Shown piece after piece: positions 429 to 26,133 of a stretch of DNA of 28,000 bases (within the stretch, counting starts at the first letter, position 1; the number at the start of each line of letters is the position of its first letter). The position numbers were made by a program, and so were the translations under genes. Under the pieces are notes generated by a model. That model had not been told where the DNA came from and made no database searches. It saw only the letters and a program-made list of their open reading frames with translations. The stretch comes from a virus. Taxonomy: Duplodnaviria; Caudoviricetes. Where the stretch lies: positions 1-28,000 of the IMG/VR virus record IMGVR_UViG_3300049042_000281; one strand, 5' to 3'.

Positions 429-838
429 TGTCATCTCCTTGAAACAGAATGAACCCCACATCGGGGTTCGCCACCCTGACCCTTACGGCAACCTACACCC
501 CCCCTCCCAACCGCCGTAAACCCTTGCAAATCAAGGACTTATGCGACCCATGCCGCGCCGTGACCTGCTTACTTGCGCTCTTTCGTTCGGTGTCCGTTCG
601 GTCTGCACCCCCCCGAAGCCCCCTCGCGGGCGGTCAGATCGGCGGGGGAAAGACCCTTTTTGTCTGGCAATTTTTTGCCAAACCTGACCAACACCTTTTT
701 GGGGGGTGGCAGCCGTAAACCCTTACGGCACCGGCTCCCATCCCCCCACTGACCATACTGTCATACTTTCCCCTACATTCATAGGAGGAAGTATAGAGAG
801 AGATAGTTGTGGCGAAAAGCTGTCAGTCCGTTTACCTG
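429..838. promoter_or_regulatory. Non-coding region rich in inverted and direct repeats (regulatory region, origin or structured RNA candidate)
   Basis: GAACCCC-N5-GGGGTTC (451-469); TAAACCCTTG-N5-CAAGGACTTA (517-541, imperfect); TGGCAA-N4-TTGCCA (665-680); GCCGTAA-N4-TTACGGC (712-729); direct repeats GCCGTAAACCCTT (513, 712) and ACCCTTACGGCA (479, 719). Confidence 0.45.
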
Positions 839-2266
839 TCAGCCGAGATCGTCGTCTTGGTCCTTCTTCAGCGAAAGACCCCCCAACGCCCTCGTACCTT
901 CAGCACCTTTCCTGATCCTGCTGAGATCCCAGCTACTTTCCGCCACAATTTTCATGAGCAGTTGGTTGTCAGCCACGTGCAACCTGACGTTATTGACCCT
1001 GCACCAGTCCTTCCACTCCCGCCTCACGAGCTCGTTTGCCACCGCTCCCTCCCGATTCCGGACGAACCGAGCCTCGAGGAAGTAATCGAACGGGTTGTTC
1101 GCCAGGTGATAGTCCCTCACCACGGTCTTCCCGGAATCAGTGGGGGTGAACTTCTCTCCGTCCGGAGCCCCCTCCAACCGGATCGCCCCCCTCAACGCCC
1201 ATACCGCGATCCCTGCCAGCTCACCCTTCAGCACGTCCATCAGGTTGTGCTGCTCCTTGCCCTCGAAGCTCTTCTCGAACGGCAGCACCAGCATCTTCCC
1301 GCTCAGCCCCCGGCCCTTGTTCGGCAGCTGTGGAATCTCATTGGACTGGACCCACGGCGCCGCCTGCACCACGACGTTCCGCATCTGCCGCTTGTACTTC
1401 GCATTGATGCTGATCGGATCCCGACCCAGCACGTTCTTCAAGACCCGCACCGCGACCTCGCCCTCCCGGGAATCGAGTTCGCTGACCTCCGAGATGCACA
1501 GCACCCGCGCGAACTCCAGCCCATCCAACCCAAAGTTCCCCGCAATCTCATCCAAACTACTGCCCACGAACCCAGTGCCCCCCACGAGCCACCGCATCAC
1601 GGTCCCGATCGTTCCCTTGCCGGCCCGGATCTTCCCGTGGAACAGCATCCACTTCGCATAGCGCCGGTGGCTCATCATCGAGTAGCCCATCCACCGCTGC
1701 AACAACTCAACCCACGCCGGATCCCCACCGCTCCACTCCTTCAAGCACTGCTCCCACCTCGGGCACTGAGCCGTCATGTCCAGATCCACGTCCACGACGC
1801 ACGGATCGAACCACTCGGGCCCGCGCGGAACGCACACGATCCCTCCAGTCTCCGCGCTCAGCTTCACATCGACGATCACGTCCCGGAACGCCACCGCGCA
1901 GTGCGGGTCGCTCAACCTGTCCCTGTAGTCCGGGCACAGCCACTGCGGCACTTCAGCACCAGCCACCCGTGACAACGCCTCGATGGCCCGCACGATCCCG
2001 GACACCTTGAACTCCGTGGGCCCGTACCTCTCGACCACGAGCCCGTTCGGGTCGTCGCTGACGTGCAGATCCTCGGTCCACCTCCACACCGCATCCTCAA
2101 GCCACTGCCGGTCCCGCTGCACCCACTTGCCGCCGTACCACTCGAAGATCCGTCCCTGGACCTCCTTCAAACCCATCCCATCCTCGAAGCAGACCTTCAG
2201 CATCGCCCGGGCCACCTTCATTGGCTCGGTTGTCCTCAAAGGGTTTTGTTGTGTACCCAGTGTCAT
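839..2266 (-). CDS. D5/P4-family SF3 helicase (phage primase-helicase C-terminal type, no primase domain)
   Basis: D5_N-like segment (VAFRDVIVD, CPRWEQCLKEW, LLQRWMGYS), Walker A GKIRAGKGT, Walker B LCISEV, motif C WVQSNEIP, and GRDPISINAKYK. AAAGGA SD before ATG 2266. Confidence 0.9.
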   Translation of the reverse strand: MTLGTQQNPLRTTEPMKVARAMLKVCFEDGMGLKEVQGRIFEWYGGKWVQRDRQWLEDAVWRWTEDLHVSDDPNGLVVERYGPTEFKVSGIVRAIEALSRVAGAEVPQWLCPDYRDRLSDPHCAVAFRDVIVDVKLSAETGGIVCVPRGPEWFDPCVVDVDLDMTAQCPRWEQCLKEWSGGDPAWVELLQRWMGYSMMSHRRYAKWMLFHGKIRAGKGTIGTVMRWLVGGTGFVGSSLDEIAGNFGLDGLEFARVLCISEVSELDSREGEVAVRVLKNVLGRDPISINAKYKRQMRNVVVQAAPWVQSNEIPQLPNKGRGLSGKMLVLPFEKSFEGKEQHNLMDVLKGELAGIAVWALRGAIRLEGAPDGEKFTPTDSGKTVVRDYHLANNPFDYFLEARFVRNREGAVANELVRREWKDWCRVNNVRLHVADNQLLMKIVAESSWDLSRIRKGAEGTRALGGLSLKKDQDDDLG

Positions 2267-2293: not shown

Positions 2294-3637
2294 ATGTCTC
2301 AATACCCACGCGGCTTCAATCCACTCGACCCGGCCGGCCGGCGCCTCAACCGTACCCTCGGCACGGACCTCCGTGACCCGACCTCGTTCCTCGAGCAGCT
2401 TGCTGCCCGCAAGGCCGTTCCAACCACGCCAGTCGCAGCGAAAAAGCCAAAGCAGACCACGCCGGAACAACCGGCAAAGTCTGCTACTTCCACGATGACT
2501 ACTGGTCAGGATCCCCGCTCCGGCGGCCCTGCTCCGACTCCGCGACCTGCTGCTCCTGCTGCTCCGTCTGATTCGATGACTGCTGCTCGTGCTACGTATG
2601 AGTCTGAACTTGCGGCGTTTGCCGAGCGCGAACGCATGGGCTCCCCTGTGGACCCCCTCACCCGCAAGCGGGCCCTTCAGCGCTACGAGAACAATCTCGG
2701 CCGCATCAAGGCGATTCAAGCCCAGGAGGACCGAAAATACCGCTTCAAGGAGGAAACCCTCGCAAAGAACGCCAAGCGGGAAGCCGCCAACGCGAAGGCC
2801 AACCAGATGGCTGGCGAAGCCCTCGCATCGTCGACCGCCCGGCTCGAGCAGTCTATGCAAACTGCCCAGCCTGTCAAGAGCATCGACGAACTAAATGCGG
2901 AGTACACCCGCAAGCTCGGCCAGGACTACGCCGCCCAGCAGGCCCAAGACGCTGCCGCAGCCTCGAAGGTCAACGCCGCCGGCCAGGACCTCACCGCCAG
3001 GATCAGTGGGGGTGCAGACTGGCTGACCAAGGCCATCGACCGCTCCGTCTCCACGCTGCAGGAAGCAGCCCGCAAGACCCCCACTGGCCAGGTGTCCGAG
3101 CTCGTTGGTCCCCCCACGAGCCTGATGTACACGCCGGACCAGCAGCGCATCATGAACGCGCTCTCGCAGGTCGGCCAGTTCGAGCGAGACCTCCGTCGAA
3201 CCCCTGGCACCATCAACTATTCCCGTGAAGACTTCGGTCCTGGGTACCTCCTCGACAAGGCCGAAGCCGAACAGGCGGCCGTCGACAAGGCTGCCCGTGA
3301 CACCTTTACCCGCCTGTCGCAGCGTCCTCCGCTCGCAACGCCTTCCGTCCCTGAAGTGCCGGACAACAACCTTACCGATACCCAGATCGAACAGTTCTCC
3401 GCTGGCTACGCTCCAGGCCGTCCCATGACGGACACCGAGATGGAGCGAACTCCCGGGATCCCCATTCGTCGTCAGTTCACGGATACCCAGATGGAGCAAA
3501 GCCCGACACTGCCGAAGAGCAAGCGGCAGAAGCTTGCCGAAGATGTTCGTACCGCCAACGAATACGGCATCTCGGTTGATGACTTGCGTGGACTGCAAGA
3601 CATGCGTGACGCGATCCTTTGGAACTTGAGCCAGTGA
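2294..3637 (+). CDS. Hypothetical Ala/Gln/Pro-rich protein (~447 aa), possibly virion-internal
   Basis: AGGAG SD at 2284-2288 supports ATG 2294 within track ORF 2063..3637. Helical/low-complexity composition and three TDTx(I/M)E repeats near the C-terminus. Confidence 0.75.
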   Translation: MSQYPRGFNPLDPAGRRLNRTLGTDLRDPTSFLEQLAARKAVPTTPVAAKKPKQTTPEQPAKSATSTMTTGQDPRSGGPAPTPRPAAPAAPSDSMTAARATYESELAAFAERERMGSPVDPLTRKRALQRYENNLGRIKAIQAQEDRKYRFKEETLAKNAKREAANAKANQMAGEALASSTARLEQSMQTAQPVKSIDELNAEYTRKLGQDYAAQQAQDAAAASKVNAAGQDLTARISGGADWLTKAIDRSVSTLQEAARKTPTGQVSELVGPPTSLMYTPDQQRIMNALSQVGQFERDLRRTPGTINYSREDFGPGYLLDKAEAEQAAVDKAARDTFTRLSQRPPLATPSVPEVPDNNLTDTQIEQFSAGYAPGRPMTDTEMERTPGIPIRRQFTDTQMEQSPTLPKSKRQKLAEDVRTANEYGISVDDLRGLQDMRDAILWNLSQ

Positions 3638-4077
3638 GCAAGAAGAAGCGAGGCATGTCCTTCAGCCTGGGCGGCGGGCTCCGCTGGGTCCACGAGTCGC
3701 GGTTCTGCGACGAGCTCCAGCTCAGCCCGAAGGCGTTCCGCCGGCTGTGCCGGCAGCTCGGTGTCCCGATGCTGCACATCCACGAGGACTGGCTCGTCAA
3801 CCTGCACATGTTCCGCATCGGGCTCTGGGCCGCCTGCCGCTTCGGCCAGCCCGACTTCCTCGTGCCCGGCTGCGAGCAGATCTCGAAGGGCCGCAAGCCC
3901 TCCCGTCACCAGGCAACTTCCGTGTCCCGCGAGTACATCGAGCAGAATCTCCCGATGCTTATCGAGGAGATCAACAAGGCCCGCGTCATGGACGGCGTCG
4001 AGCTCGAGCAGCGCACCATCGACGAGTCCCGTGACGCCGCCCGCCGTATGCTGAACCTCCTCAACCCCAGGACCTGA
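3634..4077 (+). CDS. Putative winged-helix DNA-binding protein (Xis/MerR/Nu1-like)
   Basis: GTG start overlaps the upstream TGA (GTGA). ESRFCDELQLSPKAFRRLCRQLGVPMLHIHEDWLVN fits a helix-turn-helix plus beta-wing pattern. Confidence 0.55.
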   Translation: MSKKKRGMSFSLGGGLRWVHESRFCDELQLSPKAFRRLCRQLGVPMLHIHEDWLVNLHMFRIGLWAACRFGQPDFLVPGCEQISKGRKPSRHQATSVSREYIEQNLPMLIEEINKARVMDGVELEQRTIDESRDAARRMLNLLNPRT

Positions 4078-4080
4078 CCC

Positions 4081-4570: not shown

Positions 4571-4737
4571 TGGTCCCCATCTCCGAACAGGTCTTCGTGC
4601 CGGTGAACCGCATCAAGCGGATCTCCTTCTTTGCCGACTACGCCCTCATCAAGTACGAGGACCACTCGGAGGAGAAGATCGAGGGCGAGGACGCTACCCG
4701 TCTCCGCGACTTCCTCCTTACCCGCTGGGGCCTCTGA
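4567..4737 (+). CDS. Hypothetical protein (~56 aa, MMVPISEQ...)
   Basis: ATGA overlap with the upstream stop and TGATG overlap with the downstream start; part of track ORF 4501..4737. Confidence 0.7.
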   Translation: MMVPISEQVFVPVNRIKRISFFADYALIKYEDHSEEKIEGEDATRLRDFLLTRWGL

Positions 4738-4992: not shown

Positions 4993-5196
4993 ATGGCCAA
5001 GCTGCCCCCACTGAATGGAAAGCCGAAGAAGCCCTCCAAGTACGCGCCCAAGAAGTGCCCCGAGTGCGGCGAGGAGCTGGACGAGGAAGGCGAGTGCGAG
5101 GAGTGCGGCTACGGCTGCGAGGAGTGCGAGGCCGAGAAGGAAGCCGAGAAGCAGATGGAAATCAAGCTCTCCATCTTGCTGCCCGGCGGCGACTGA
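4993..5196 (+). CDS. Small acidic CxxC zinc-ribbon-like protein (67 aa)
   Basis: CPECG...ECEECG.GCEEC (three CxxC pairs) with a basic N-terminus and a Glu-rich core. Confidence 0.7.
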   Translation: MAKLPPLNGKPKKPSKYAPKKCPECGEELDEEGECEECGYGCEECEAEKEAEKQMEIKLSILLPGGD

Positions 5197-5390: not shown

Positions 5391-6842
5391 ATGCTCTTTG
5401 ACCCCAGGATTCTCGAGCAAGCCACCCGCGTTGGCTTGGGGACGATCGGGGAGACTGGTGCGGTCGAGGGCACTCAGTTTGGCCGGGGTATAAGGCGCAG
5501 GGAAATCGGACTCGATCCGATGCCCCGCATCTACTACCCCGGCCAAGCTGAACTACTGCAGGACATCGGAAAGGTTCGCGCGACCCAGGATCCAAAGCTG
5601 CTGCAAGGCGCGATCCAGGGCGTTCTTGATGCTCCGTTCGAGGAGACCTTCGGGTTCACCCGTACGCCGCTCGGTGCAACCGTCGAACCGTTCTTCAAGG
5701 TCAAGGTCTCTCCGGACCTTCCGTTCTCGCAGTCCTCCATCTTCCCGATCCTCAACGATCCTAAGGAGACGGAGGACATGTACAAGCGGTTCATCTCGTA
5801 CGCCGAGAGCAAGAAGTACAGCGCGACCGCGAAGGAGATCCAGAAGGGCTATCTCGATCTTCGCCGCTTCAACAAGGACATGTCCGTGCTGATGGAGCTC
5901 GGACTTGCCCGTGGAGCCCAGCCCTACGGTCCCACGTTCGCCAGCGCATTCAAGCATTCCCTTCTTCTATATTCTGCCGCCATTCCGCCGGGATCGGCGA
6001 CCCTTGGCTACATGATCAAGGACCCCCGGCTGCAGACGACGGTCGGCGAACCAAAGCCAAGGCCGTACCGTGGGCCGCGTGGGGAGGGTGTGCTTGCGCG
6101 GGACACCCAGCTGATGAAGCGGTTTGCGGAACTCGGCATCCTGAAGGCGAAGGGTCGCCAGGCCGGTGGTCCGCTGACGGCCGATGCCATCCGGATGTTC
6201 CAGACCGTGCTTGGTCCGTCCGTCGGTCTGCGGATGGGCCGTGGGCTCAACGAGGTCCCGCTGACGCCGACCGTGCCCGGCGAGAACCCGATGATCGACC
6301 GCGCCCGTGCGGCCGCCACCAAGGACATCCGTGCCCAGTCGAGCGCTGAACTCCGTGGCCTCGTGACCCCCGAGGTCGCGCAGCTGGATCCGCAGGCCAA
6401 GTACGACCGCGTGGTCACAGTGCTGAAGTCGCGGCTGAGCCCGTCCGAGTTCAACAACGTCATGATCGACGCCGCCGGCGGACGCCCGCTCTCGGAGGCC
6501 ACCCAGGTCCTCAACAACCTCGACCCCGAGACCCGCACCAGGGCGCTCATGCGATCAGTGGGGGCTGCAAAGGGACAGGACGCCGTGGTCCAGACCCTTG
6601 AGGAAGCGGCAAGCACTTCGGCTGCCCGCGCCAAGCAGAAGGTGAAGCCGACGCAGACCCGCCTGACGACGCAGTCGCTCGAGGCCGGTGTGCTCACGCG
6701 CGAGGAAGCCGTCAAGCAGGGCAACAAGATCGCCCGCCAGATGAAGCCTATCGTGGGGGCCATGAAGAACCCGGCGCTGGTGTTCACGCTGGCTGCGATC
6801 CTGTCGGCAGGCATGATGTCGGCGATGGAGGAGGGCGCATGA
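5391..6842 (+). CDS. Hypothetical protein (483 aa) with C-terminal hydrophobic segment
   Basis: GAGGTG SD, long ORF, C-terminal PALVFTLAAILSAGMMSAM could be a membrane anchor. Confidence 0.8.
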   Translation: MLFDPRILEQATRVGLGTIGETGAVEGTQFGRGIRRREIGLDPMPRIYYPGQAELLQDIGKVRATQDPKLLQGAIQGVLDAPFEETFGFTRTPLGATVEPFFKVKVSPDLPFSQSSIFPILNDPKETEDMYKRFISYAESKKYSATAKEIQKGYLDLRRFNKDMSVLMELGLARGAQPYGPTFASAFKHSLLLYSAAIPPGSATLGYMIKDPRLQTTVGEPKPRPYRGPRGEGVLARDTQLMKRFAELGILKAKGRQAGGPLTADAIRMFQTVLGPSVGLRMGRGLNEVPLTPTVPGENPMIDRARAAATKDIRAQSSAELRGLVTPEVAQLDPQAKYDRVVTVLKSRLSPSEFNNVMIDAAGGRPLSEATQVLNNLDPETRTRALMRSVGAAKGQDAVVQTLEEAASTSAARAKQKVKPTQTRLTTQSLEAGVLTREEAVKQGNKIARQMKPIVGAMKNPALVFTLAAILSAGMMSAMEEGA

Positions 6843-7743: not shown

Positions 7744-8074
7744 CGACCACATCACGCTGGACGAGGCGATCGAGACCATCAAGCGGCTCCGCCAGCAGGT
7801 CCGCAAGGCCTGGTACGTCCCGGCCCTCAAGGACACCATCGAGGAGCTGAACCCAGCCGCCATGTTCCTGGACGGCATGGATGACGCCCTGGTCGGATAC
7901 GCGATTCAGTGGGGGTCTCCTGCGCTCCCGGTCTACGACGCCGACCGCATCATCGAGATCCTGTCGAAGGACATGGACTACGAGGAGGCGGTCGAGTACT
8001 TCAGCTTCAACATCGAGTGCGCCTACGTCGGTCCCGGTACTCCGCTGATCCTGCATCGCGCCACGGAGGAATGA
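7685..8074 (+). CDS. Conserved hypothetical phage protein
   Basis: GGAGG SD at 7676-7680. DGMDDALVG...VYDADRIIEIL...EEAVEYFSFNIECAYVGPGTP is a pattern I recognise from widespread uncharacterised phage proteins. Confidence 0.8.
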   Translation: MPVKDIEHRLAEMREFYPSDDHITLDEAIETIKRLRQQVRKAWYVPALKDTIEELNPAAMFLDGMDDALVGYAIQWGSPALPVYDADRIIEILSKDMDYEEAVEYFSFNIECAYVGPGTPLILHRATEE

Positions 8075-10035
8075 TGGAGATCAAGCGGATACCGACGCGC
8101 GACGAAGGGAACCCGAACTATCCGCTGCCTGCAGACTACGACTCGTTGAGCGCAGATGGCCAGCGCCTCGCGCGCGTGAACGCCTGCCGCCAGTGGCTCC
8201 TCACCGAGGATGATCCGACGAAGCGCGGCGACAACCTGGTATCGTCGGTGTGGTGGTTCGACCGCTACTACCTGTGGCCCGACGACGACGCCGACTTCAA
8301 CCCGCTGTTCTACGACGACACGCCGCTCGAGACCCCTGACTTCCACTGGGTCCTGCTGCGGCAGTGGGCTGCGTACCGCATGACCGCAGCCGTCGCGCCC
8401 CGTGGCTCCGCGAAGTCGTACCTCAACTGCAAGGACATGCTGCTCCGGCTGGTGACGAGGCCGGCGTACTCGTTCGTGTACGCGACCAGCTCGCACCCGA
8501 ACGCGCGGGAGGTCGGCGAGCGCATCAAGCGCCAGCTGATCCACAACAAGCGGATCCACGACGACTTCGGCCCTGAGTTCGAGAGCAACCGGATCGTGCC
8601 CCGCCGTGGCGAGGGATCGTTCAGCACCGAGCACATGGTGCTCAACAACGGCTCATGGCTCCGGTTGCTGAGCGCGTCGTCGAAGCAGCGTGGTGGCCGC
8701 CCCCGCCGGTACCGGCTCGACGACCCTGAGTACGATCCGAAGGCGTCGACGCCGATGTCGGTGCTCCGCGCCTACATCGACGAGCTCCTCTTCAAGATCG
8801 TGATCCCGATGGTCACGCGCCCGGACACGGGAGTGGACTGGGTCGGTACGTTCGTGTCGAAGCGCCACTACCTGTGGCATGCGATGCAGCTCCAGGAATC
8901 CCCGGAGGGAATGATCGCCAAGGACCCGCGCTTCAACCGCTGGTCCCGCCTCATCATCCCCGCCGGCATGGAGGAGGACGGCAAGATCGTGTCGTGCTGG
9001 CCGGACATGTGGCCAGCCACCAAGAAAGAGCGGCTCGAGATGGCGGCTACTCGCCCCCGCTTCAAGGAGTCGTTGTCGCTCGAGGAGATCCGCGAGTCGA
9101 TCGGTTCCGCCAACTTCTCCTCCGAGTACATGGCGGCTCCCGGCGACGGCGTCGGCACGTTCTTCGGCGAGATGAACGAAACGCACTCGTGGTGGTTCGA
9201 GGAGATCGACGACTTGATCGACCAGCCTCTGGCCTCGAAGACCGTCATCTGCTGGAACGAGCGCAAGGAGGAGAAGTTCGAGACCAAGAAGATGCCGCTC
9301 TCGGACTTCCTGCGGGACTACAGCCGCATCTTCATGACGGCCGACACTTCGCACACCTCGACCACGGATTCCGACTTCAAGGTCTGCTGCCTGCTCGCCG
9401 TGACCCCTCAGAACGACCTGTTCGTCCTCGATCTCTGGGCCCGCCAAGGCCAGGAGTCCGAGTTGGTGAAGGCGATCTTCGAGATGGCTGATCGCTGGCG
9501 CTGCCCGACCGTGCACCCCGAGGTCATCAAGCAGGGCGTCTCCCTGTTCAACGCCCTGAACTCGATCGTGAGTACCCGCGCGAACGACATGGCCGGCGTC
9601 GCGCACCTGCCCAAGATCGTCAAGCTGAACCCTGGCATGGCGGAGAAGCAGGACAAGATCGCCGGCCTGCAGTTCCGGTTCGAGCACGGCAAGATCAAGC
9701 TGCCCTTGTGGCGCCGTGAACAGCTGCCGTGGCGCCACCTGTTCGACCAGATCGAGTCGTTCAACCCCGAGGCCCAGGACGGCGGCCTGGAGAAGGACGA
9801 CTGCATCGACGCGGTCGCCATGTCCCAGTTCGTCCTTCGGGGCCGCCTGAACAAGATCAGCGGTTCCGTCTCCGCCAAGAGCCTGTTCGAGCGCCTGCGG
9901 GACGGCGACTTCTACGAGAACGGCCACCACGTGGGAGAGGGCTTGAACCTGGATGCCCTGACCGCCGCCCAGATCAACGAGATCCTCGATGCACGAACCC
10001 CATCCCCAATCGCAACCAAAGTCAACAAGATCTGA
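8074..10035 (+). CDS. terL: Terminase large subunit
   Basis: Walker A APRGSAKS, RGGRP and Walker B RYRLDDPE, coupling motif WVGT, nuclease acidic motifs MTADTS and KDDCIDAVA. GGAGG SD; start at 8071 or 8074. Confidence 0.9.
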   Translation: MEIKRIPTRDEGNPNYPLPADYDSLSADGQRLARVNACRQWLLTEDDPTKRGDNLVSSVWWFDRYYLWPDDDADFNPLFYDDTPLETPDFHWVLLRQWAAYRMTAAVAPRGSAKSYLNCKDMLLRLVTRPAYSFVYATSSHPNAREVGERIKRQLIHNKRIHDDFGPEFESNRIVPRRGEGSFSTEHMVLNNGSWLRLLSASSKQRGGRPRRYRLDDPEYDPKASTPMSVLRAYIDELLFKIVIPMVTRPDTGVDWVGTFVSKRHYLWHAMQLQESPEGMIAKDPRFNRWSRLIIPAGMEEDGKIVSCWPDMWPATKKERLEMAATRPRFKESLSLEEIRESIGSANFSSEYMAAPGDGVGTFFGEMNETHSWWFEEIDDLIDQPLASKTVICWNERKEEKFETKKMPLSDFLRDYSRIFMTADTSHTSTTDSDFKVCCLLAVTPQNDLFVLDLWARQGQESELVKAIFEMADRWRCPTVHPEVIKQGVSLFNALNSIVSTRANDMAGVAHLPKIVKLNPGMAEKQDKIAGLQFRFEHGKIKLPLWRREQLPWRHLFDQIESFNPEAQDGGLEKDDCIDAVAMSQFVLRGRLNKISGSVSAKSLFERLRDGDFYENGHHVGEGLNLDALTAAQINEILDARTPSPIATKVNKI

Positions 10036-10492
10036 CACGGTCGTCCCCCTCCCCCTGTTCGAGGCGATGGCCAGGTGGTACTTCGGTGCCTCCGTGGAGA
10101 AGGAACCCCCACTGGATCGCGGGATGGGTCAAACCATCACAATCTCCGATTCTTGGTTAGGGGTGCTCTGCCTGTCTTACTACGGCAACGGCCCCCGTCA
10201 CCCATCGGTCAACTTGAAGCCCCTGGAATCAGTGGGGGTGGACAAGCCCGATCGTGACACCGTGATGCAGTATGTTCCCGTCAAGGAATCCGTCCGCATG
10301 ATCCCCGGTGGGTATGCGGCCAAGAAGGCACAGGCACAACATGGCAACCGACCCAATCAAGCTGACCAAAGACCCGATGATGCTGGCTCGGATAATCGAC
10401 GAGCACTGCGAACGGGAGCAGAATCGCCTGGCGTACCGCCGGGCGACGTGGCTGGTGGCGCTCTACTACATGATGGGGGCCCGTCAGTTTGA
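9989..10492 (+). CDS. Hypothetical protein between terminase and portal
   Basis: Only ORF spanning the 305-bp terL-portal gap. Internal duplicated motif (VVPLPLFEAMARWYFG / ITISDSWLGVLCLSYYG); overlaps both neighbours. Confidence 0.5.
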   Translation: MHEPHPQSQPKSTRSDTVVPLPLFEAMARWYFGASVEKEPPLDRGMGQTITISDSWLGVLCLSYYGNGPRHPSVNLKPLESVGVDKPDRDTVMQYVPVKESVRMIPGGYAAKKAQAQHGNRPNQADQRPDDAGSDNRRALRTGAESPGVPPGDVAGGALLHDGGPSV

Positions 10493-12353
10493 TGTGTTCG
10501 ACCCGGTGAGCGGCACCGTCCGGTACTCCTACCTCGACGACGAGGAGAAGATGGAGTTCCAGTCGAGCGAGCTCATGAGCGCGGTCGACAAGATCTCGGG
10601 ACGGCTGAGCAGCATGGACTTCCGGCCGCTGGTGCAGCGCGTCGGTTCGTCGCTGAGCTCGATCAGGCAGCGGTCGATCGCGCAGATCATGCTGGACCAG
10701 GTTGTCTCGGAGCACCAGCTGCAGCGGATCGTGCCGCAGTTCAACCACGTCTTCGCGCTCCTGGGTTCGTGCGGCATCACCGGGCACATGGTGAACCACC
10801 CCACGGTGGGCATGACCGCCGATCTTGAGGTCGTGCATCCGATGGAGCTGTTCCCGTTCCCGAGCCTGACGCAGGATTACACGAAGCAGCGCGGGTTGCT
10901 GCGGCAGCGCATGGTGTCGCTCGAGTACCTGAAGGACGTGTTCGGGCCGAGGGTGGCCCGCAACAAGGATCGGCTCGAGTATTTCACGATCAAGCCCGGC
11001 GAGACCTTCGAGCAGCAGACCGCCAACGAGTACACGCTCGGCACCAACGTCGAGTATTCGGACAGCAAGGTCGTCGGTTCCGATCCGAAGTACGACGCGC
11101 TCGAGGTCGTCAAGGTGCGCGAGCTCTGGCTCAAGGGACCACGGGACACCGTGACCCGGTACGTGGTGACGAGCGGCGAGTACGTGATCCACGACGAGGA
11201 CCTGGAGGGCCGCGAGGTCTACTGCCCGATCGGGTTCGCCCGGTTCATGGAGAACGGAACCTTCCACGGCGCCGGCGTCTTCGACCTCTTGTTCCCGCTG
11301 TGCCGCGAAGCCGAGAAGCTCCAGAAGCAGCTCTTCAAGAACGTGCACGACATCGACCGGTACGGCGTCCTCGTGCTGCCGCACGGATCGTTCAACGCGA
11401 ACACGATGCTGCGCGACGTCGGCAAGGGACTGCGGGTGTTCCCGTGGGAGCCCGATCCGATCAGCGAGGGCTTCCGTCCGTTCAACATCACGCCGTTCAA
11501 CTCGGGCGACGTGCCCGGCAAGATCAGCGCGTTCGCGGTCCAGCAGATCGACCGTCTCAATCCGATCCGCGACCTTATCGCGGAGAAGGGCCGGGTGGAC
11601 TCGGCCACGGGATTGCAGTTCCTGGACGAGCAGGTCAACCGCGCCATGAACACCCCCACTGCCGGTGTGCAGCAGGCGTGGGGCGACTGCTACAGAAGCG
11701 TCCTCGCGGGCACGGTGCGTGAGGTCGTGTTCAGCCCGAAGACGTTCACGGTCGACCAGCTCACGCTGGATCTGGCCGGCGTCGTGGTTGATCCGGAGAC
11801 GATGGCGGTGAGCTTCGAGCAGAACCCGCTGCCGTCGCTCGGGCAGCTGTCGTTCAAGATCAAGGACATCAACCCGAGGAGCAAGGTCGCCCGCAAGCAG
11901 GAGGCCCTCCAGCTCCAGCAGCAGTTCCAACTGGACCCGGACACCTTCATGCTGTTTGCGCTGAAGGAGGGCCTGGACTTCGCGATGTGGACGGACGAGC
12001 ACCAGGCTGCGTACGAGTCCGTGGTCAGGAACTGCCTGCTGCTGTACGGTGACGGAACGACGCCGGGACAGGTGGTGCTGACGCCGCAGACCACGAAGCC
12101 CGAGATGCAGATCCGGGTGCTCAACTCGTTCATGGCCGGACCAGTGATGGCGGTCGCGACGGCGGAGGTGCAGAACGCCTTCATCGAGTACCACAAGACG
12201 CTGACGAGCTTTATGGGCTTGGTACTTCCGAACGCCCTTCCCAATCCTGACGATATGGCTATGCTGGGGCGGCTGGATCAGCAGATGGCCCAGCTCCAGG
12301 GCATGCAGCAAGGAGCACCTGGACCGCAGATGCCCCAGATGCAAGGGATGTAA
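10341..12353 (+). CDS. Portal protein (podovirus/P22-like, ~670 aa)
   Basis: Position after terL and before scaffold/MCP, size, helical N-terminus, VHPMELFPFP and VKVRELW segments, GRVDSATG-type motif, Q/M-rich C-terminal tail. Confidence 0.8.
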   Translation: MATDPIKLTKDPMMLARIIDEHCEREQNRLAYRRATWLVALYYMMGARQFDVFDPVSGTVRYSYLDDEEKMEFQSSELMSAVDKISGRLSSMDFRPLVQRVGSSLSSIRQRSIAQIMLDQVVSEHQLQRIVPQFNHVFALLGSCGITGHMVNHPTVGMTADLEVVHPMELFPFPSLTQDYTKQRGLLRQRMVSLEYLKDVFGPRVARNKDRLEYFTIKPGETFEQQTANEYTLGTNVEYSDSKVVGSDPKYDALEVVKVRELWLKGPRDTVTRYVVTSGEYVIHDEDLEGREVYCPIGFARFMENGTFHGAGVFDLLFPLCREAEKLQKQLFKNVHDIDRYGVLVLPHGSFNANTMLRDVGKGLRVFPWEPDPISEGFRPFNITPFNSGDVPGKISAFAVQQIDRLNPIRDLIAEKGRVDSATGLQFLDEQVNRAMNTPTAGVQQAWGDCYRSVLAGTVREVVFSPKTFTVDQLTLDLAGVVVDPETMAVSFEQNPLPSLGQLSFKIKDINPRSKVARKQEALQLQQQFQLDPDTFMLFALKEGLDFAMWTDEHQAAYESVVRNCLLLYGDGTTPGQVVLTPQTTKPEMQIRVLNSFMAGPVMAVATAEVQNAFIEYHKTLTSFMGLVLPNALPNPDDMAMLGRLDQQMAQLQGMQQGAPGPQMPQMQGM

Positions 12354-15581: not shown

Positions 15582-16640
15582 ATGCACTCATCAGGATCCA
15601 TCCTCAAGACGTACTGCGAGAAGGTTCGGCATTACCTGGACGATCCGGACCTGGACGCCAAGTACGACGACAACTACCTGGTGCGGTTCTTCCTGCCAAG
15701 CGCGATGACCGACGTGATCTCGCGGGTCTCGCAGATGTCGGACGCCCAGATCCTGTCGTCGTTCCAGATCACCGTCAACCCTGGGACGACGCACTACAAG
15801 TTGCCGCCGGCAGTGGCGCAGGTCGTCAGGATCGGGAGCATCGAAGCGCAGACAGGTCTCTTCATCGAGGACCTGAAGCCCCGCAACCAGTTTCACCTGA
15901 ACGGTCCTGGATGGACGGTGCAGGGAAACGCGATCGTGTTCCAGCCGGCGGTCGAGTACACCAAGACGTACACGGTGGTGTTCGTGCCGAGCGGCGACAT
16001 CCAGTGCCATTACGTGTCGACGGCGACCGGTGCGCTCACAGGCACCGCGCAGTTCATCCTGCCGACCACGCTGACGCTGGGCACCTTGGACAAGCGCCCG
16101 AATGCGTACCAGGGTTCGTATCTGCGGATCTTCGGCGCGAACGTGACCGACGAGATCGTGATCGCGGGTTACGACGCGGACACGCGCGACGTGACGCCTA
16201 GCATCACCCCCGTCAATCCGGCGGGCCCGACGTACTTCTACAGCTACGAGATCGTGCCGTTCCTGCTGGAGCCGATGATCGACGCCATCTCGATCAGTGC
16301 GGCCATGCGCGCGGGCGTGGGCCGCAAGATCAACCAGGCCCACATGCAGTCGTTGATGCTGGCGTACAAGCAGGCGATCAAGACGGCGCATGACACGCTG
16401 GCCAACATGAATGGCCGCGTCGGCAAGAGCTTCTTCAGCCCGACCATCGACAGCACCCCAGGCTTCTACGTCGGGCCCTCCATCGGAACCAGCAGCTCCG
16501 GCGGATCCAGTGGGGGTCTCTGCGACTGTGACGATGTCGCAAGCGCGACCACCCAGTCCCAGATCCTTGCGACGGTGGATCAGATCCTTGCGGCCTTGCA
16601 GGATGGCGTGAGCGGAGGAACCTGGAACAACAACCCATGA
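15582..16640 (+). CDS. Head-tail adaptor-like protein (putative)
   Basis: N-terminal YCEKVRHYLDDP...YDDNYLVRF helix pair, GTTHYKLP motif, and C-terminal helices (LAYKQAIKTA) typical of podoviral adaptors; position after MCP. Confidence 0.65.
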   Translation: MHSSGSILKTYCEKVRHYLDDPDLDAKYDDNYLVRFFLPSAMTDVISRVSQMSDAQILSSFQITVNPGTTHYKLPPAVAQVVRIGSIEAQTGLFIEDLKPRNQFHLNGPGWTVQGNAIVFQPAVEYTKTYTVVFVPSGDIQCHYVSTATGALTGTAQFILPTTLTLGTLDKRPNAYQGSYLRIFGANVTDEIVIAGYDADTRDVTPSITPVNPAGPTYFYSYEIVPFLLEPMIDAISISAAMRAGVGRKINQAHMQSLMLAYKQAIKTAHDTLANMNGRVGKSFFSPTIDSTPGFYVGPSIGTSSSGGSSGGLCDCDDVASATTQSQILATVDQILAALQDGVSGGTWNNNP

Positions 16641-17713: not shown

Positions 17714-18576
17714 TCATCGGACCAATCTCTCCAACCCGTTTCGTACCGGCGACCACCAAGGCCCCCGAGCCGGATCTGTCGGTCAATCAAGAATGGACCA
17801 CGGGTCAGTTGCTGCAGTGCCTGCAGACCGGGCGCATCTGGGTCGTGGGCACCGCCAACGGGACCACCACGCAGCAGGTGCGACAGGTTCTGCCGTGGGT
17901 TCGTCAGCTTGTCGCGACCCCCACTGTCGGCACCCAGATCGTGAACAACGGCGGCGTGATGAAGGTGCAGAAGGAAGCCACTGCCGGAGTCACCTTTGGC
18001 GAGTTGAACCTGTTCGACACGCTCAAGGTCGACAGCAACGGCGGGGTCATTACGCCCGGGTTCTCCGGCATTGCTTGCTTCGATGAGACAAATAGCCTCA
18101 ACATTACCAGCGCTCAAACTTTTGTCGTCGAGGATTCTGACGAGCTCTTGTCGACAAACTCATCGGCTCCGACGGTGCTCTACCACGTCAGCCAAGATGC
18201 AAATGGGTGGGTTCAGCCGTCCCGGCCAGCACAATATCTGCTGACGACAACCAGGCAGTTCTACCACAACAATCCCTATGTCGTGCACATGGCGATCGAG
18301 TACACGCCGAACATTCCTATCGGTGGATCAACGTATTACCCGTTGATCTACCATTCACAGTCCAGCTCTGGCGGGTACATGTCAATGACCTTGACGGCCT
18401 TTGCCCCCCTCGGGGGCTCGCAGGGGTGGTTCAGGGTTCGTGCATGGTCATCCGAAGCGGGAGTTTTCCACCGTCCCTACTCCGGTGTCAACCAGTGGCC
18501 AAGCAACCCGGCGTCTCCCAATGCGGGGTATCTGGTCCAAAGCCGGTCGAACATGGTGGCGATCCAGGTAGTTTGA
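17710..18576 (+). CDS. Putative tail fibre/accessory structural protein (288 aa)
   Basis: ATGA-coupled, T/G/S/V-rich beta character, aromatic-rich C-terminal domain. Confidence 0.55.
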   Translation: MIIGPISPTRFVPATTKAPEPDLSVNQEWTTGQLLQCLQTGRIWVVGTANGTTTQQVRQVLPWVRQLVATPTVGTQIVNNGGVMKVQKEATAGVTFGELNLFDTLKVDSNGGVITPGFSGIACFDETNSLNITSAQTFVVEDSDELLSTNSSAPTVLYHVSQDANGWVQPSRPAQYLLTTTRQFYHNNPYVVHMAIEYTPNIPIGGSTYYPLIYHSQSSSGGYMSMTLTAFAPLGGSQGWFRVRAWSSEAGVFHRPYSGVNQWPSNPASPNAGYLVQSRSNMVAIQVV

Positions 18577-21181: not shown

Positions 21182-24100
21182 ATGCCTGACCTAAAGACTG
21201 ACTGGTCGTATCCCGTGATGGAGACCACGCTCGACAAGCGCATCGAGCGGGCCGGTGTCCAACGGGGTTTCTCAAGCGAGCTCACGGGGGTGGACGGACG
21301 CAGCGAGGGCGGGCTCAAGCCGTTCCCTGGGTTCCGCAAGGTCTACACCCTGGACCAGCTTCAGGCGCAGGCGGGACACGGGATCCTGTCGGACGTGATC
21401 GACTTCAAGGCCGTCGACTTCAGGATCGGTTCCGAGTACTACGGCTACGGCTTCGTGTATCGCGCGGTCAACGTGGCCGGCACGGCGGCCGACGTATTCA
21501 TCGACTACTGGGATTCGGCGAACCAGGTATGGACCAAATGCACCAAGCTGATGTCGAACGTCTCGAAGACGGCGCAGTTCGACGTGGAGGTCTCGGGTCG
21601 GTTCATCTACACCTTCGTGGCTGGACGGTCTCCTGCGCTCTTCTATGTGGAGGCGACCCGAACCAAGGAGTACGCGCCCGAGGCGGACTCGTACATCAAC
21701 GCGGGCGCCACCACCACGAACTACGGAAGCGCTGTCGATATCCAGATCAACAACACCCCCACTGAACGCAGGGGGTTGATCCGGTTCGATACGTCGGCGG
21801 AGTCCGGCAAGACCGTGGAGACGTCTGTGCTGAGCTTCACGGTGTCGGGCAACGCGCCCGGTGCCACCACCACCCTGACGCTGAACCCCGTGACCGATCC
21901 GGCGCCCGTGGACGGAGACTGGATCGAGGGCCAGGTCACATGGGCCGAGCGGAAGACGGGAACCGCATGGACGACTGCGGGCGGCGACTACAACGCAGGA
22001 GTCTCAGCCACTCTATCAGTGGGGGTGGGATTCCTCGGTCGTGTGTCGATCGACCTGAAGACGATCACACAGGGCTTCCTGAGCGGGACGTACAACGCGG
22101 CCTCGGCGAAGACATCGCTGATCATGCGGAGCAACCAGACCGGCATCATCAACGTGCCGGCTAGGGGGCAGGCGAATCCAGCGATCAGGCCGCAGCTCGT
22201 GGTGACGTACGTCGACAAGGTGTTCCTGACGCCTGTGATCGTCGGGTTGACGGGTACCGGTACTTTGCCGGGACCGGGCAAGCAGCCGTTGCTGACAAGT
22301 CCGGAGCGCGGCATCTCGGCGGGTTCGTACACGTCGATTGATTCGGGCCGCCCGGCGAACGCGCAGATCGTGCTGGTCTCCGACAACCCGTACGCCAACG
22401 AGAACAACTTCCCCGACCAGACCTCGGGCCTGTGCACTGCGGATTCGTTCCCTGCCCCAGGAGCCGAGACCGTTCCGGGCGGGGCGGGTGGCTGCAGTAC
22501 AAGCGGTGGACCGTGCGCATCGACGGTGGATCAGAAGACTTCGGACAACCTGATCCTGCAGCTGTTGACGCCTGCGAATCGGCAGACGGGCGTGAGCGTG
22601 ACGCCAAAGCTCGACTGGATGGCGTACTACACCACGGGTGCATCGTTGTCAGTGAACATGCTGTACGACGTGTTCCTCGTGGAAGAGGGCAAGGGTTCGC
22701 TAAGTGACAAGCGGGTGGCCACCGACATCACGACGAGCTACTTCGAGCCCGCGAGCCTGTGGCCGCTGGGCAAGATGCCGTACGGCAAGAAGTTCCTGTG
22801 GAAGGTCGTGGCGAAGCGAAACGACTGCAACGACTTCTGTCTGTCGAGCACCACGGGTACGTTCACGACGGAGAACAGGTACCAGGCCCGCAAGTTCGAG
22901 CCCGGCGACTACAGCTTCAGCTACGTGCTGGTGGACTCGAAGACGGGACGCAGGAGCGCTCTGAGTTCGGTCGCGCAGGTCCGCAGCGAGGACTTCCTCG
23001 TGACGCGGAACCAGGGCGGCAACAGCATCAGCGTGAAGCAGGACCAGTACATGGGCATCGAGATCGTGTACGACTCGGACAAGTACGACCTGCTGTATGC
23101 GTACCGCAGCGTGAAGATCCAGGATGCCGGCGGAACGATGATCGCGGGCCTGCCGTTCCTCGACGCGGTGATCAGGCTCGAGGATTACCACACTTGCAAG
23201 AATGGCACCGACCGTACCTTCGATCCCACGAACACGACGAACCGGCATGCGATGTACTTCTACGAGCTCGAGGACAAGCAGCTCGTGTACCAGAGCCCGT
23301 ACGTGGACCGCAGCGTGTTCGACGAGGAGATGCCGTACGGAGGTGCGGCGGCCTTCTACCAGAACACGATGCTGGTCTCGCGGATCGAGAACCCGCTTGA
23401 GTCGAGCTCGGACGAGACGCGGATCGACGACCCGCACCGGGGTCTCGGGGAGATGCGCTGGTCCAGCCTGGTGGAGATGAGCCCGGAGCTGTTCCCGCCG
23501 TTCAACCGGTACAACCCGACGGTGCCGAGCAACGAGGTCATCTGCTTCTCGAAGGTGGGCGCCAACGTCGTCGGCATCAGCCGCGACAAGGTGTACCACA
23601 TCCGGAAGAGCGGGCCGTACATCAAGGTCACCGAGATGCACGAGGGCTACGGCATCGTGAACCACAAGGCCGTGGACTCGGTGGGCAGCTCCGCGTTCTA
23701 CGTGACGAGCCACGGTCTGAAGAGCGTGGATATGCAGGGCCAACTGGATGAGATCAGGAACCTGAACAGCGTGATCGTGCGCGAGTGGCAGGATGACCTT
23801 GCCTCGGTGCAGGTGTGCCACGACCCGTTCATGAACTGCTTGTTCGTGCACAATCCGGATCAGGAGGAGACGTACGTCCTCTGGTTCTCGACGAGCAAGA
23901 CCACCAAGATCGCGGACGCCAGCTTCGCCCTGGTGTCCCAGGGTTCGTGGCCGATCAACTTCACGGGGTCCGAGTACGTGAACGATCTGTCGCGACGGGC
24001 GTTCTTCCTGCAGAACAACCAGGAGACCCGGGTCAGCGGCACGGGCTACAACACCTACGCAGGTCCTGCGGTGTACGTGGTCGATCAGGCTGGCGACCGC

Positions 24101-24862
24101 ACGATCAGTGGGGGTTCAGCGGCATGGAACGGATCCCGACGGATCACGACGCTGGACTTCGCGGGGGACAGCCGGTTCCTGGCTTCGGGCGCGTGGGCTA
24201 GCGCGATCCCGATCGGTAGCGCCACCGTGGCGACCGGGGCCTGGAAGTTCTGCTACCTGTATCTGGTGGCTTCGACCGCGAACCCCGGCAACGTGGGCAA
24301 GAAGGCGAAGATCATGCACAACACGGCGACCAACGTGTACATCGACAGTGTGGTGTACCCGTGGGTCACCTCGGCTGCGGCGGGTGACGTGTTCGTGGTG
24401 AGCCCGGTTCCGTTCGAGTGGGCTGGGCATCCGCTGTCGCTGTCCACCGAGAACGGCATGGTGTTCTCGAGCGCCGACCTGTTCCGCATGAAGGTGCTGA
24501 GCAGCATCGGTGCATCGTTCACGGATGTGGCTGGGCCGCCGGTCACGGACTCGGTGACGGCGACCAAGCCGTTGAACCGGTACACCGGGTTGGCGTACTC
24601 GGGCACTTCGGAGAACCCGGTCGCTACGGCGGCCACCAAGGACACCAATGGAAACCTGTATGCGTCTGTGGAGGATGATGAAGGCGTGGTGTACGCTGCC
24701 TTTGGATCTGATGCTTCTGATGGGAAGTACGGTGTCAAGGGCAACTCGCTGACACCGGGCATCCGAATCCTGTGCCCCGATCTCGACTTCCGGCTTCTGG
24801 GCTGTATCGTGCGCGGCAGCATCACGTCGGTCGAGCGAACCACCAACATCAGAGGTAGCTGA
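21182..24862 (+). CDS. Large tail protein (nozzle/tail tubular B-like) with DNRLRE and Fn3-like insertions (1226 aa)
   Basis: N-terminal GGLKPFPGF, MRWSS...PELFP and beta-propeller-like repeats, C-terminal FRLLGCIVRG, typical of P22 gp10/T7 gp12-like nozzles. Inserted EADSYIN...NYG...RGLIRFD...WIEGQVTW...RPQLVVTY and LLTPAN...LDW...YDVFL...WKVVAK...FTT. Confidence 0.7.
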   Translation: MPDLKTDWSYPVMETTLDKRIERAGVQRGFSSELTGVDGRSEGGLKPFPGFRKVYTLDQLQAQAGHGILSDVIDFKAVDFRIGSEYYGYGFVYRAVNVAGTAADVFIDYWDSANQVWTKCTKLMSNVSKTAQFDVEVSGRFIYTFVAGRSPALFYVEATRTKEYAPEADSYINAGATTTNYGSAVDIQINNTPTERRGLIRFDTSAESGKTVETSVLSFTVSGNAPGATTTLTLNPVTDPAPVDGDWIEGQVTWAERKTGTAWTTAGGDYNAGVSATLSVGVGFLGRVSIDLKTITQGFLSGTYNAASAKTSLIMRSNQTGIINVPARGQANPAIRPQLVVTYVDKVFLTPVIVGLTGTGTLPGPGKQPLLTSPERGISAGSYTSIDSGRPANAQIVLVSDNPYANENNFPDQTSGLCTADSFPAPGAETVPGGAGGCSTSGGPCASTVDQKTSDNLILQLLTPANRQTGVSVTPKLDWMAYYTTGASLSVNMLYDVFLVEEGKGSLSDKRVATDITTSYFEPASLWPLGKMPYGKKFLWKVVAKRNDCNDFCLSSTTGTFTTENRYQARKFEPGDYSFSYVLVDSKTGRRSALSSVAQVRSEDFLVTRNQGGNSISVKQDQYMGIEIVYDSDKYDLLYAYRSVKIQDAGGTMIAGLPFLDAVIRLEDYHTCKNGTDRTFDPTNTTNRHAMYFYELEDKQLVYQSPYVDRSVFDEEMPYGGAAAFYQNTMLVSRIENPLESSSDETRIDDPHRGLGEMRWSSLVEMSPELFPPFNRYNPTVPSNEVICFSKVGANVVGISRDKVYHIRKSGPYIKVTEMHEGYGIVNHKAVDSVGSSAFYVTSHGLKSVDMQGQLDEIRNLNSVIVREWQDDLASVQVCHDPFMNCLFVHNPDQEETYVLWFSTSKTTKIADASFALVSQGSWPINFTGSEYVNDLSRRAFFLQNNQETRVSGTGYNTYAGPAVYVVDQAGDRTISGGSAAWNGSRRITTLDFAGDSRFLASGAWASAIPIGSATVATGAWKFCYLYLVASTANPGNVGKKAKIMHNTATNVYIDSVVYPWVTSAAAGDVFVVSPVPFEWAGHPLSLSTENGMVFSSADLFRMKVLSSIGASFTDVAGPPVTDSVTATKPLNRYTGLAYSGTSENPVATAATKDTNGNLYASVEDDEGVVYAAFGSDASDGKYGVKGNSLTPGIRILCPDLDFRLLGCIVRGSITSVERTTNIRGS

Positions 24863-26133
24863 TGAGCCAGTTCCGGTTTGGAAACCTTCCGTCCCCGTCG
24901 CAGGACCCGCTGTCCTCGCTGGTGACTCCGACTCCCCGCAACCAGGGTCGGCCTGGTGGCACCCCCACTGGTCAGCGTCCTCCCGAGGCGCCACGCCCGA
25001 TGAACCCGTTGCAGGGTCGCCCGGGAGCCTCTTCGTTCCAGACGACGGCGCCGAGTTCGTTCAACCGTCGCGGCATTGTCCCCATGGGGCAGGTTCCGAC
25101 CCCCCGTGGGCAGCAGCCGAATCAGATGCAGTACATGGGCAACACGGTGTCGCAGGGTTCCCAGCCTTCATTCACCCCGGGCGCCGGCATGGTTCCTATG
25201 GGTCTTCCGGCTGGCAACATCGGGCAGCAGTTCATCAACTGGGATCAGGCGCTGGCGAACGCGATGGGCATGGACATCGCGAACCAGCAGGGCGCCATGA
25301 ACCAGCAGTACGGCCAGATGCAGGGCCAGATCGGGCAGTACGAGCAGGCTCTCCAGCAGGGCCTCGGAACCCTGCAATCAGTGGGGGTGCAACAGCAGCA
25401 GGCGCTCCAGGGCATTGCGGGCGGGCTCGAGCAGAAGGGCCAGCAGGGCTACCAGGAGTTCAAGGACTTCCGCGACCAGCAGATGGGCGCGGTCGGACAG
25501 GACATCACGAAGGCCAATCAGTTCGCGGCACAGGCCACGCAGAACTACCAGCAGGCCATCGCGGACTTCAAGGACACCAGCGCCCAGGATGCGGCGAACG
25601 CGGCGTTCGGTATGCGGAGGAACGCGCAGGAGCAGATGGCGCAGATCGACATGCTCGATGCGTCGCCGGCGGAGAAGGCTGCGCTGAAGCAGACCATGAT
25701 GGCGGACGTAGGTAGCCAGGTCACGCAGACCGTGACCGGGATCTACAGCAACATGAACCAGACCGTGGCGTCGATGCAGGGCAACCTGTCGAGCCTGATG
25801 GGTGCGCAGTCGCAGACGGCGATGGCCGGCGGTCAGTTGCGGGGCCAGGTTGGTACGGCGTTCGGAGCGCAGACGCTGCAGGCCCAGCAGATGAACCAGC
25901 AGATGAGCGAGCTCGGTGCGAACCTGCGGGTGATGGGAGAGCAGGCGCTTGCGAGCGCGATGCAGCAGTCGGTGATGCTGGAGCTGCAGGGCCGTCAGAC
26001 GGTGGCCCAGATGATCCAGGAGAACCCGCGACAGTTCGTCAGCATGTTCGCAGGCATGACCGGGTTCCTGGCTGCGGCCACGACGCCGGGCATCGGACAG
26101 ATCAGTGTGCCTAACTTCGGAGCCATCGGATGA
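24862..26133 (+). CDS. Putative internal virion/ejection protein (Gln/Met/Gly-rich)
   Basis: Follows the nozzle; Pro-rich N-terminus, Q/M/A-rich helical body, hydrophobic C-terminal FVSMFAGMTGFLAAA. Confidence 0.6.
   Translation: MSQFRFGNLPSPSQDPLSSLVTPTPRNQGRPGGTPTGQRPPEAPRPMNPLQGRPGASSFQTTAPSSFNRRGIVPMGQVPTPRGQQPNQMQYMGNTVSQGSQPSFTPGAGMVPMGLPAGNIGQQFINWDQALANAMGMDIANQQGAMNQQYGQMQGQIGQYEQALQQGLGTLQSVGVQQQQALQGIAGGLEQKGQQGYQEFKDFRDQQMGAVGQDITKANQFAAQATQNYQQAIADFKDTSAQDAANAAFGMRRNAQEQMAQIDMLDASPAEKAALKQTMMADVGSQVTQTVTGIYSNMNQTVASMQGNLSSLMGAQSQTAMAGGQLRGQVGTAFGAQTLQAQQMNQQMSELGANLRVMGEQALASAMQQSVMLELQGRQTVAQMIQENPRQFVSMFAGMTGFLAAATTPGIGQISVPNFGAIG

Follow-up and report, generated by a model that had tools for sequence, protein, structure and literature searches.

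The dispersed word and its surroundings

The stretch of DNA analysed here (the window; positions 1 to 28,000 of IMG/VR virus record IMGVR_UViG_3300049042_000281) represents about half of an uncultured tailed phage of ~53 kb, whose near-complete relatives measure 48-58 kb and are syntenic with it. Among its genes and in one intergenic region, the window carries 18 exact copies of the nine-nucleotide word CAGTGGGGG, 10 on the + strand and 8 on the - strand (Table 1). A preliminary description, made from the letters alone, had reported this array, and our recount recovered all its copies, orientations and coordinates exactly and agreed on the context of the copies: the base 3' of the word is T in 15 of 18 cases and the base 5' a pyrimidine in 16 of 18, a 13-mer form starts at 1136, 3002, 10228, 22015 and 25377, and 17 of the 18 copies lie within open reading frames (ORFs), spread over five frame/orientation classes and encoding the peptides listed there. 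The guanine plus cytosine (GC) content, put by eye at ~63%, was measured as 62.1%, and the mononucleotide expectation of ~0.6 copies as 0.56.

Table 1. Positions of the word copies and of other features in the window
Feature	Positions	Strand	Remarks
CAGTGGGGG copy	743..751	-	in intergenic origin-like region 430..838
CAGTGGGGG copy	1138..1146	+	inside helicase gene, antisense, peptide TPTD
CAGTGGGGG copy	3004..3012	+	peptide ISGG
CAGTGGGGG copy	3078..3086	-	peptide TPTG
CAGTGGGGG copy	5005..5013	-	peptide PPLN; common to 4/5 aligned genomes
CAGTGGGGG copy	6556..6564	+	peptide SVGA; window only, among 6 aligned genomes
CAGTGGGGG copy	7907..7915	+	peptide QWGS; common to 5/6 aligned genomes
CAGTGGGGG copy	10106..10114	-	peptide PPLD; small ORF 9989-10492 between terminase and putative portal
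CAGTGGGGG copy	10230..10238	+	peptide SVGV; in ORF 9989-10492
CAGTGGGGG copy	11653..11661	-	peptide TPTA, putative portal gene; peptide invariant 8/8, word kept 5/8
CAGTGGGGG copy	12701..12709	+	peptide xSGG, putative scaffold gene; word kept 8/8
CAGTGGGGG copy	16508..16516	+	peptide SSGG
CAGTGGGGG copy	17918..17926	-	peptide TPTV
CAGTGGGGG copy	21756..21764	-	peptide TPTE
CAGTGGGGG copy	22017..22025	+	peptide SVGV
CAGTGGGGG copy	24106..24114	+	peptide ISGG
CAGTGGGGG copy	24962..24970	-	peptide TPTG
CAGTGGGGG copy	25379..25387	+	peptide SVGV
Intergenic region 3' of helicase gene	430..838	.	putative replication origin
D5-family (SF3) helicase without N-terminal primase domain	839..2266	-	gene beside intergenic region 430..838
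Conserved 152-aa protein	3619..4077	+	predicted Xis/BldC/MerR-like winged helix
Terminase large subunit	8071..10035	+	phrog_38, E 3e-38
Putative major capsid protein	13287..14960	+	label from size and position; no capsid family match

The word is far more frequent than any null model predicts. Dinucleotide shuffles of the window gave a mean of 0.32 copies (maximum 4 in 100), and the k-mer comparison with Markov models that had been proposed as a check gave 0.09-0.38 for orders 1-5 with the copies masked, against 18 observed, so that the enrichment is 28-200-fold depending on the null. Shuffling synonymous codons in 27 window genes produced a mean of 0.63 copies (maximum 4 in 2000) where 15 are observed, and of the 27 places at which the peptide permits the word 15 are filled, against 0.49 expected; in six relatives the word fills 18-28 of 35-52 such places. 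Codon or peptide demand is thereby ruled out as its cause, in agreement with the preliminary description, which had held that protein sequence does not account for the copies. Just 3 one-mismatch neighbours occur in the window. A role as ribosome-binding site or terminator was also ruled out, the placement of the 219 copies in eight clade-A genomes relative to starts and stops being at chance (2 vs 2.1 and 10 vs 12.1, respectively); copies within 150 nt 5' of starts are in mild excess (27 vs 16.8).

Clade variants, strand bias and spacing in the family

Relatives were collected with two markers, the terminase large subunit and the putative major capsid protein. The word is present in every one of the 73 close loci (L001-L073, partly redundant), with 508 copies in 983 kb at GC contents of 47-67%, and an artefact or low complexity is ruled out because the word recurs in all of these independently assembled loci; 38 more distant loci contain 3 copies in 412 kb. 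In each of 29 long genomes the top 9-mer is the genome's own G-tract variant, present in 12-82 copies. These top words include CAGTGGGGG, GAGTGGGGG, AGCGGGGAA, GTGGGGGAG, TAGTGGGGA, TGGGAGGGG or GGAGGGGTT, and further GGAGAGGGG, GGGAGGGGG, GTGGGGGGA or TGGGGGGAC, and TTCTGGGGG, giving about ten clade words over one conserved gene set. On one strand, every clade variant shows 4-6 consecutive C, and GTGG is found inside the words of clades A, B, D, E and G and is absent from those of clades C, F and H. Of 80 viral loci that have an inverted pair with flanking DNA, every one of the 16 whose density of further clusters reaches 0.19 per kb or more carries genes of the family; outside the family the highest density was 0.12 per kb. 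In nearly all of 11 gene trees made with FastTree the word classes agree with the family tree; the exceptions are class C, which the capsid tree splits, and class F, into which the variant of genome G018 falls. This agreement does not indicate co-evolution, because kin share labels, and none of the 11 trees singles out a reader of the word.

Individual sites are gained and lost between relatives while the density of the word holds. Among the aligned coding sites listed for the eight clade-A genomes, 44 of 72 are private to a single genome, a few of these singletons being alignment offsets. In 7 of the 8, one copy lies 296-299 nt away from the helicase stop (in the window, that at 1138), and at site 12701 the first residue varies over the eight genomes (S/T/I/P/F) with C always as the last base of its codon. 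One-mismatch neighbours number 65 against 69.7 expected in these genomes, and recognition of the word therefore looks, from these counts, all-or-none. The preliminary description had proposed a distributed binding or recognition code, and the presence of the word throughout the family, the turnover of its sites and the overriding of codon usage support a recognition code that is under selection: the word is a real, selected, family-wide feature.

That description had also seen no strand polarity. This is correct for the window (10:8), but over the whole genomes of the family the G-rich form occurs 555 times on the terminase-coding strand and 274 times on the other (29 genomes, which are not independent). 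The ratio is 300:160 in + genes, 150:58 in - genes and 105:56 between genes, and when 20 genomes are pooled, all 10 map bins have more copies on + than on -, with no switch point. The bias of about 2:1 thus goes with the genome strand and not with gene direction. Over 14 representatives the observed ratio (mean log2 1.03) was unrelated to the ratio expected from composition (slope -0.01, r -0.03), which ranged in log2 from -0.45 to 2.96, and for this reason each strand seems to hold a density of its own. The + strand is G-richer at fourfold sites.

Copies on the same strand keep their distance. The window has no same-strand pairs 12-1000 nt apart where 5.0 are expected, and its smallest same-strand gap is 1273 nt (p = 0.00017); ten representatives outside the F type have 35 such pairs against 71.7 expected. 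The corresponding numbers for opposite strands are 6 vs 5.6 in the window and 63 vs 57.0 in the ten representatives. The same-strand deficit is gone by a separation of 1.5-3 kb. Control words matched for count were clustered instead, with a mean observed-to-expected ratio (O/E) of 1.25 with a minimum of 0.77, and none of 500 draws reached the 0.49 of the word.

Two paired arrangements were observed in addition. A divergent pair, CCCCCACTG-N9-CAGTGGGGG, lies in the gene for a 120-aa core protein in many clade-A contigs (in genome G001 at L113:12768-12794), where it encodes TPT-x-x-x-VG and may act as a distinct site for binding a dimer or forming a hairpin. A convergent pair 33 nt apart lies in the gene of the A-family polymerase (PolA) of G001 (L114:7225-7266) and is near-identical in G002.

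Replication genes and the origin-like region

The helicase next to the origin-like region has as its nearest annotated relatives primase-helicase fusions of 784-834 aa. Near-complete relatives of the phage also encode PolA, uracil-DNA glycosylase (UDG), an ERCC4 nuclease, a PD-(D/E)XK exonuclease, a Sak4-like ATPase and a putative single-stranded DNA-binding protein, and two nucleases are among the family core genes. PolA has ~665-760 aa and its gene, with a 96-aa helix-turn-helix (HTH) protein, ERCC4 and UDG as neighbours, lies ~9-14 kb from the helicase gene on the circular map. The protein is divergent, its best PDB match (E 6e-9) covering the C-terminal part only; exonuclease-type motifs are conserved at the N-terminus in 17 PolA sequences, and motif C reads YDA where PolI has HDE (G001 PolA, L114:6365-8404). 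A RecD-like SF1 helicase (AAA_30, UvrD_C_2) is encoded near the polymerase region at L215:225-1358 of the F-type genome G014.

In clade-A relatives, 3-7 CTGACA/TGTCAG repeats in both orientations surround a purine-rich tract 3' of the helicase gene, and a GGGGGAAAG-N-TTT-GTCTG block is shared in the same region; the window's own region has fewer of these repeats, which differ from the dispersed word. The origins of SaPI Rep and SCCmec Cch2, as presented in part of PMC7581432, share such a layout of repeats and purine tract. Many contigs end ~0.2-1.1 kb from the helicase stop, and these ends may mark a genome terminus. The winged helix of the helicase is unlikely to be the reader of the word, because the repeats near the helicase gene are unlike the dispersed word, and because genomes G006 and G014-G017 share CCGG-type origin repeats though their dispersed words differ.

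The remaining genes gave few assignments. No annotated GenBank phage matches the window's terminase or putative capsid protein, the portal, scaffold and capsid labels are putative ones taken from gene size and order, and no family match was found for ORF 9989-10492. For a 1,139-aa core protein no PDB match and no recognisable polymerase or primase was found; its matches in BFVD are large polyvalent or internal-virion proteins at TM-scores of 0.2-0.3, with two weak rows for virion RNA polymerase. Profile searches against PDB with alignments of the exonuclease and of the 152-aa protein gave no match. The window further shows, on the minus strand at 49-79, a 13-bp hairpin followed by a T-run, likely a terminator after the gene at 87-428, a DUF6321 gene at 4737-4991, and very cysteine-rich proteins in the tail region (19332-21178).

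Candidate functions of the word

Of the readings considered, the likeliest, at about even odds, is that the copies, spaced regularly on each strand by itself, mark set positions from which discontinuous DNA synthesis begins. The D5 helicase would load at the putative origin beside its own gene, and where single-stranded DNA is exposed a priming activity would begin strands at the word; a second copy on the same strand within ~1.5 kb would therefore add nothing. Sites would be offered about once per 2.4 kb on one strand and about once per 5 kb on the other, the main fork direction needing more of them than a secondary direction started by recombination or restart. The likeliest priming activity would be the phage PolA with a small partner protein, as in CCPol-MP of SCCmec, and a recruited host primase would be the alternative. 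The scale of the same-strand spacing matches that of bacterial Okazaki fragments, and, outside four F-type genomes, the deficit below 1.5 kb is seen within strands and not across them. Priming is the best match for a reader of the word that handles the strands one by one and has no gain from a second site within ~1.5 kb. Priming sites also fit best among the functions that the preliminary description had listed, of which coating or compaction and virion nicks of the T5/phiKMV kind fit poorly. As to the strand that is read, the excess of G on the + strand at fourfold sites would point to reading of the G-rich form on the lagging template, and starts with dGTP, by analogy, would suggest the C-rich form.

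The closest parallel, and one that resolves the seeming contradiction of priming without a recognisable primase, is the SCCmec system, in which, according to sections of PMC7581432, the A-family polymerase CCPol and the small protein MP prime de novo beside a D5_N helicase devoid of primase, mostly with dGTP opposite template C; a 2008 proposal cited there holds that A-family polymerases linked to D5 helicases (the TV-Pol group) are primases. As in CCPol-MP/Cch2, the phages combine an A-family polymerase with a D5_N helicase without primase domain, no DnaG gene or gene of an archaeo-eukaryotic primase (AEP) was found here, and short repeats stand directly 3' of the helicase gene, as they do for Cch2. 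CCPol-MP starts opposite C, and all phage word variants have a C-run strand. However, CCPol shares one operon with its helicase, with MP encoded between the two, whereas the phage polymerase gene lies far from the helicase gene in a differing gene order, and the start preference of CCPol-MP is loose and origin-centred where the phage word is exact and genome-wide. The phage system may, by analogy, work like the CCPol-MP module but is no member of it, because PolA has exonuclease motifs and no MP-like partner was found. Short asymmetric start signals are likewise used by NrS-1 prim-pol, which starts at TTTGGTTA and GTGG (passages of PMC8718748), and by RSF1010 RepB' at ssiA/ssiB (passages of PMC8567376); these accounts give no evenly spaced genome-wide array. 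The nearest annotated helicases to this one, which carry a fused primase domain, are a further similarity to the AEP prim-pols. In contrast to NrS-1 and RepB', the family yielded neither an AEP nor a helix-bundle domain, and the words of clades C, F and H have no GTGG.

The narrower proposal, that in this widespread freshwater/marine family without DnaG or AEP primase a proofreading PolA, likely helped by a small partner, starts strands de novo at an exact clade-specific word of 8-10 nt, is a tentative one that we would sooner doubt than accept.

Several results weigh against priming at the word. The models for Prim-Pol (PF09250), Toprim_2 (PF13155) and the NrS-1 helix-bundle domain (PF22763) each matched none of 17 near-complete genomes, and a custom AEP profile run over 10,435 six-frame segments gave a best E of 0.25; in leave-one-out trials this profile recovered 6 of 8 controls, so that a very divergent primase could escape it. 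No primase was seen among the 36 G001 proteins and 123 accessory proteins scanned (from 5 genomes, out of 233 listed for 10 genomes), nor among the core families. Unlike CCPol, which depends on MP and is devoid of exonuclease domains, PolA keeps its N-terminal exonuclease motifs, and a partner resembling MP was not identified. The known enzymes are also less strict: CCPol-MP is described, in part of PMC7581432, as having no unique start consensus, and NrSPol, in part of PMC8718748, accepts GTG, which is looser than an all-or-none 9-mer. Composition alone places 59-66% of copies on the + strand, compared with 67% observed overall, and the four F-type genomes have no same-strand deficit (128 vs 128.7). 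Priming also leaves unexplained a surplus of divergent inverted pairs (9 vs 2.7 within 60 nt). Finally, five control phages were examined that carry the helicases closest to this one, each fused to a primase; four of them have no clear spaced word. In favour of priming, one of the five, the cultured Vibrio phage W04 (PQ284950.1; L502-L504, with a fused primase-helicase), has a dispersed GGAACCA in 43 copies against 8.4 expected, with same-strand pairs depleted (8 vs 20.5), and would be a convenient model for priming arrays; another, W01 (MG592458.1; L493-L495), has the Chi-like GCTGGTG enriched (51 vs 16.4) and clustered (50 vs 22.1), and one further control shows a weak same-strand deficit.

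Alternatively, the word might be a Chi-like stop for host RecBCD/AddAB or for the phage PD-(D/E)XK exonuclease, protecting linear or concatemeric DNA and starting recombination, with clade variants mirroring host Chi variants; we regard this as unlikely. The word is a non-palindromic, G-rich one whose orientation favours the G-richer strand 2:1, and E. coli Chi (GCTGGTGG) is likewise G-rich, oriented and dispersed through genes in lambdoid and T5-like phages as treated in portions of PMC3784561, where phages without RecBCD inhibitors over-represent Chi even when they have a recombinase of their own. The exonuclease, Sak4-like ATPase and ERCC4 nuclease of the family would suit such a role, and the copies show a weak left-right gradient as end protection predicts (69:47 vs 77:30, p = 0.067). 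The density of Chi there, 0.2 per kb, is comparable in magnitude to the ~0.6 per kb of the word. However, the O/E published there for Chi is ~2.3-2.5, compared with 28-200-fold for the word; Chi, a host word with an O/E of ~2.5, is regionally concentrated whereas same-strand copies of the phage word repel, and the one Chi-like word measured here, that of W01, is clustered and not spaced.

A Chi-like signal, or mimicry of another host motif, also found no support in cellular DNA: no word-rich cellular DNA was seen in three metagenome-assembled genomes (MAGs) that hold relatives, a weak test with the host not identified, nor in 119 metagenome loci (2 of 64 parts; no family member matched, hence low power). 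The three MAG contigs of relatives in the genome collection come from three unrelated groups and are probably mis-binned; a cluster look-up gave one Bacteroidota MAG name, and the Atlas a weak Planctomycetota lean for one cluster, with the phylum known for 17 of 79 members. In the G012 MAG, 29 of 36 copies of the clade-G word are on three contigs. This word was concentrated on contigs C7, C18 and C72 of G012 and C464 of G013, and C18, C72 and C464 may be further phage pieces.

It is quite improbable that the word marks nicks on either strand, whether virion nicks as in T5, phiKMV and tf or 3'-OH starts from which PolA would proceed by strand displacement and so replace a primase. The motifs of phage tf and its group, TACTRTGMC / WACTRTGAC, are likewise exact ~9-nt sequences, mostly in genes and conserved across the whole group (parts of PMC3517423 and PMC11780129); no primase was found here and two nucleases are core genes, and contig ends lie within 150 nt of a copy in 10 of 74 cases against 6.0 expected, a weak and uninformative proxy. 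Virion nicks fit poorly, however, because the published tf-group sites are on one strand, and, by the same sources, unevenly spread over part of the genome, whereas the phage word is on both strands at 555:274, even and genome-wide; moreover, nicks at the conserved inverted pairs with 9 nt between the words would approach a double-strand break.

Slightly less probable again is an oriented binding or loading site on duplex DNA for a phage protein that guides a packaging, ejection or translocation motor or organises the DNA, the candidate readers being the winged-helix protein encoded at 3619-4077 and an HTH_33-like 115-aa protein. The former is present in 28 of 29 genomes, with a predicted N-terminal fold like Xis/BldC/RppA/pSK1 Par (Z 5.3-6.2) and a comparison with P2 Cox at E 0.12, and the latter matches HTH_33 weakly in 3 of 16 members; the all-or-none specificity and the excess of inverted pairs would suit a duplex-DNA binder. 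On the other hand, the fold matches fall below the trust level of the tool, and the gene of the winged-helix protein lies in the packaging block and could simply encode a regulatory or small-terminase domain. A coat blind to orientation would be expected to keep its sites apart whatever their strand; since repulsion is confined to same-strand copies, with no depletion of opposite-strand pairs, coating or compaction of this kind fits poorly.

The rival that fits least, and a very improbable one, is accumulation without function for the phage by biased uptake and recombination, as for the cellular uptake signal and DNA uptake sequences (USS/DUS), which, in the portions of PMC2817400 drawn on here, are likewise exact, highly enriched 9-10-mers written into proteins in both orientations, evenly spread, with occasional inverted pairs and a mild enrichment of matching tripeptides, but which are competence-tied and near-equal in orientation, whereas the viral word is 2:1 in the genome frame and spaced per strand, has one-mismatch neighbours at background, and comes with no integrase among the G001 and accessory proteins scanned and no enriched cellular DNA in the weak tests on MAGs and metagenome loci.

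Searches of open-access papers and preprints (Creative Commons-licensed PMC, bioRxiv) turned up no account of this word or of an array like it. The word is a strong genomic signature of an uncultured family, flagging its contigs in mis-binned MAGs, and shows selection at the DNA level that alters codons and residues in structural genes. The missing primase sets this phage family apart and makes the 2008 proposal on D5-linked A-family polymerases (cited in part of PMC7581432) directly testable in phages. If priming does occur at the copies, the genome sequence by itself would reveal where DNA strands begin, and the clade variants would form a natural series for locating the determinant of specificity. 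A primer-independent, proofreading PolA would, if it exists, be useful for amplification; it would mean viral, sequence-strict, genome-wide priming by an A-family polymerase, with the priming map written into the genes on both strands.

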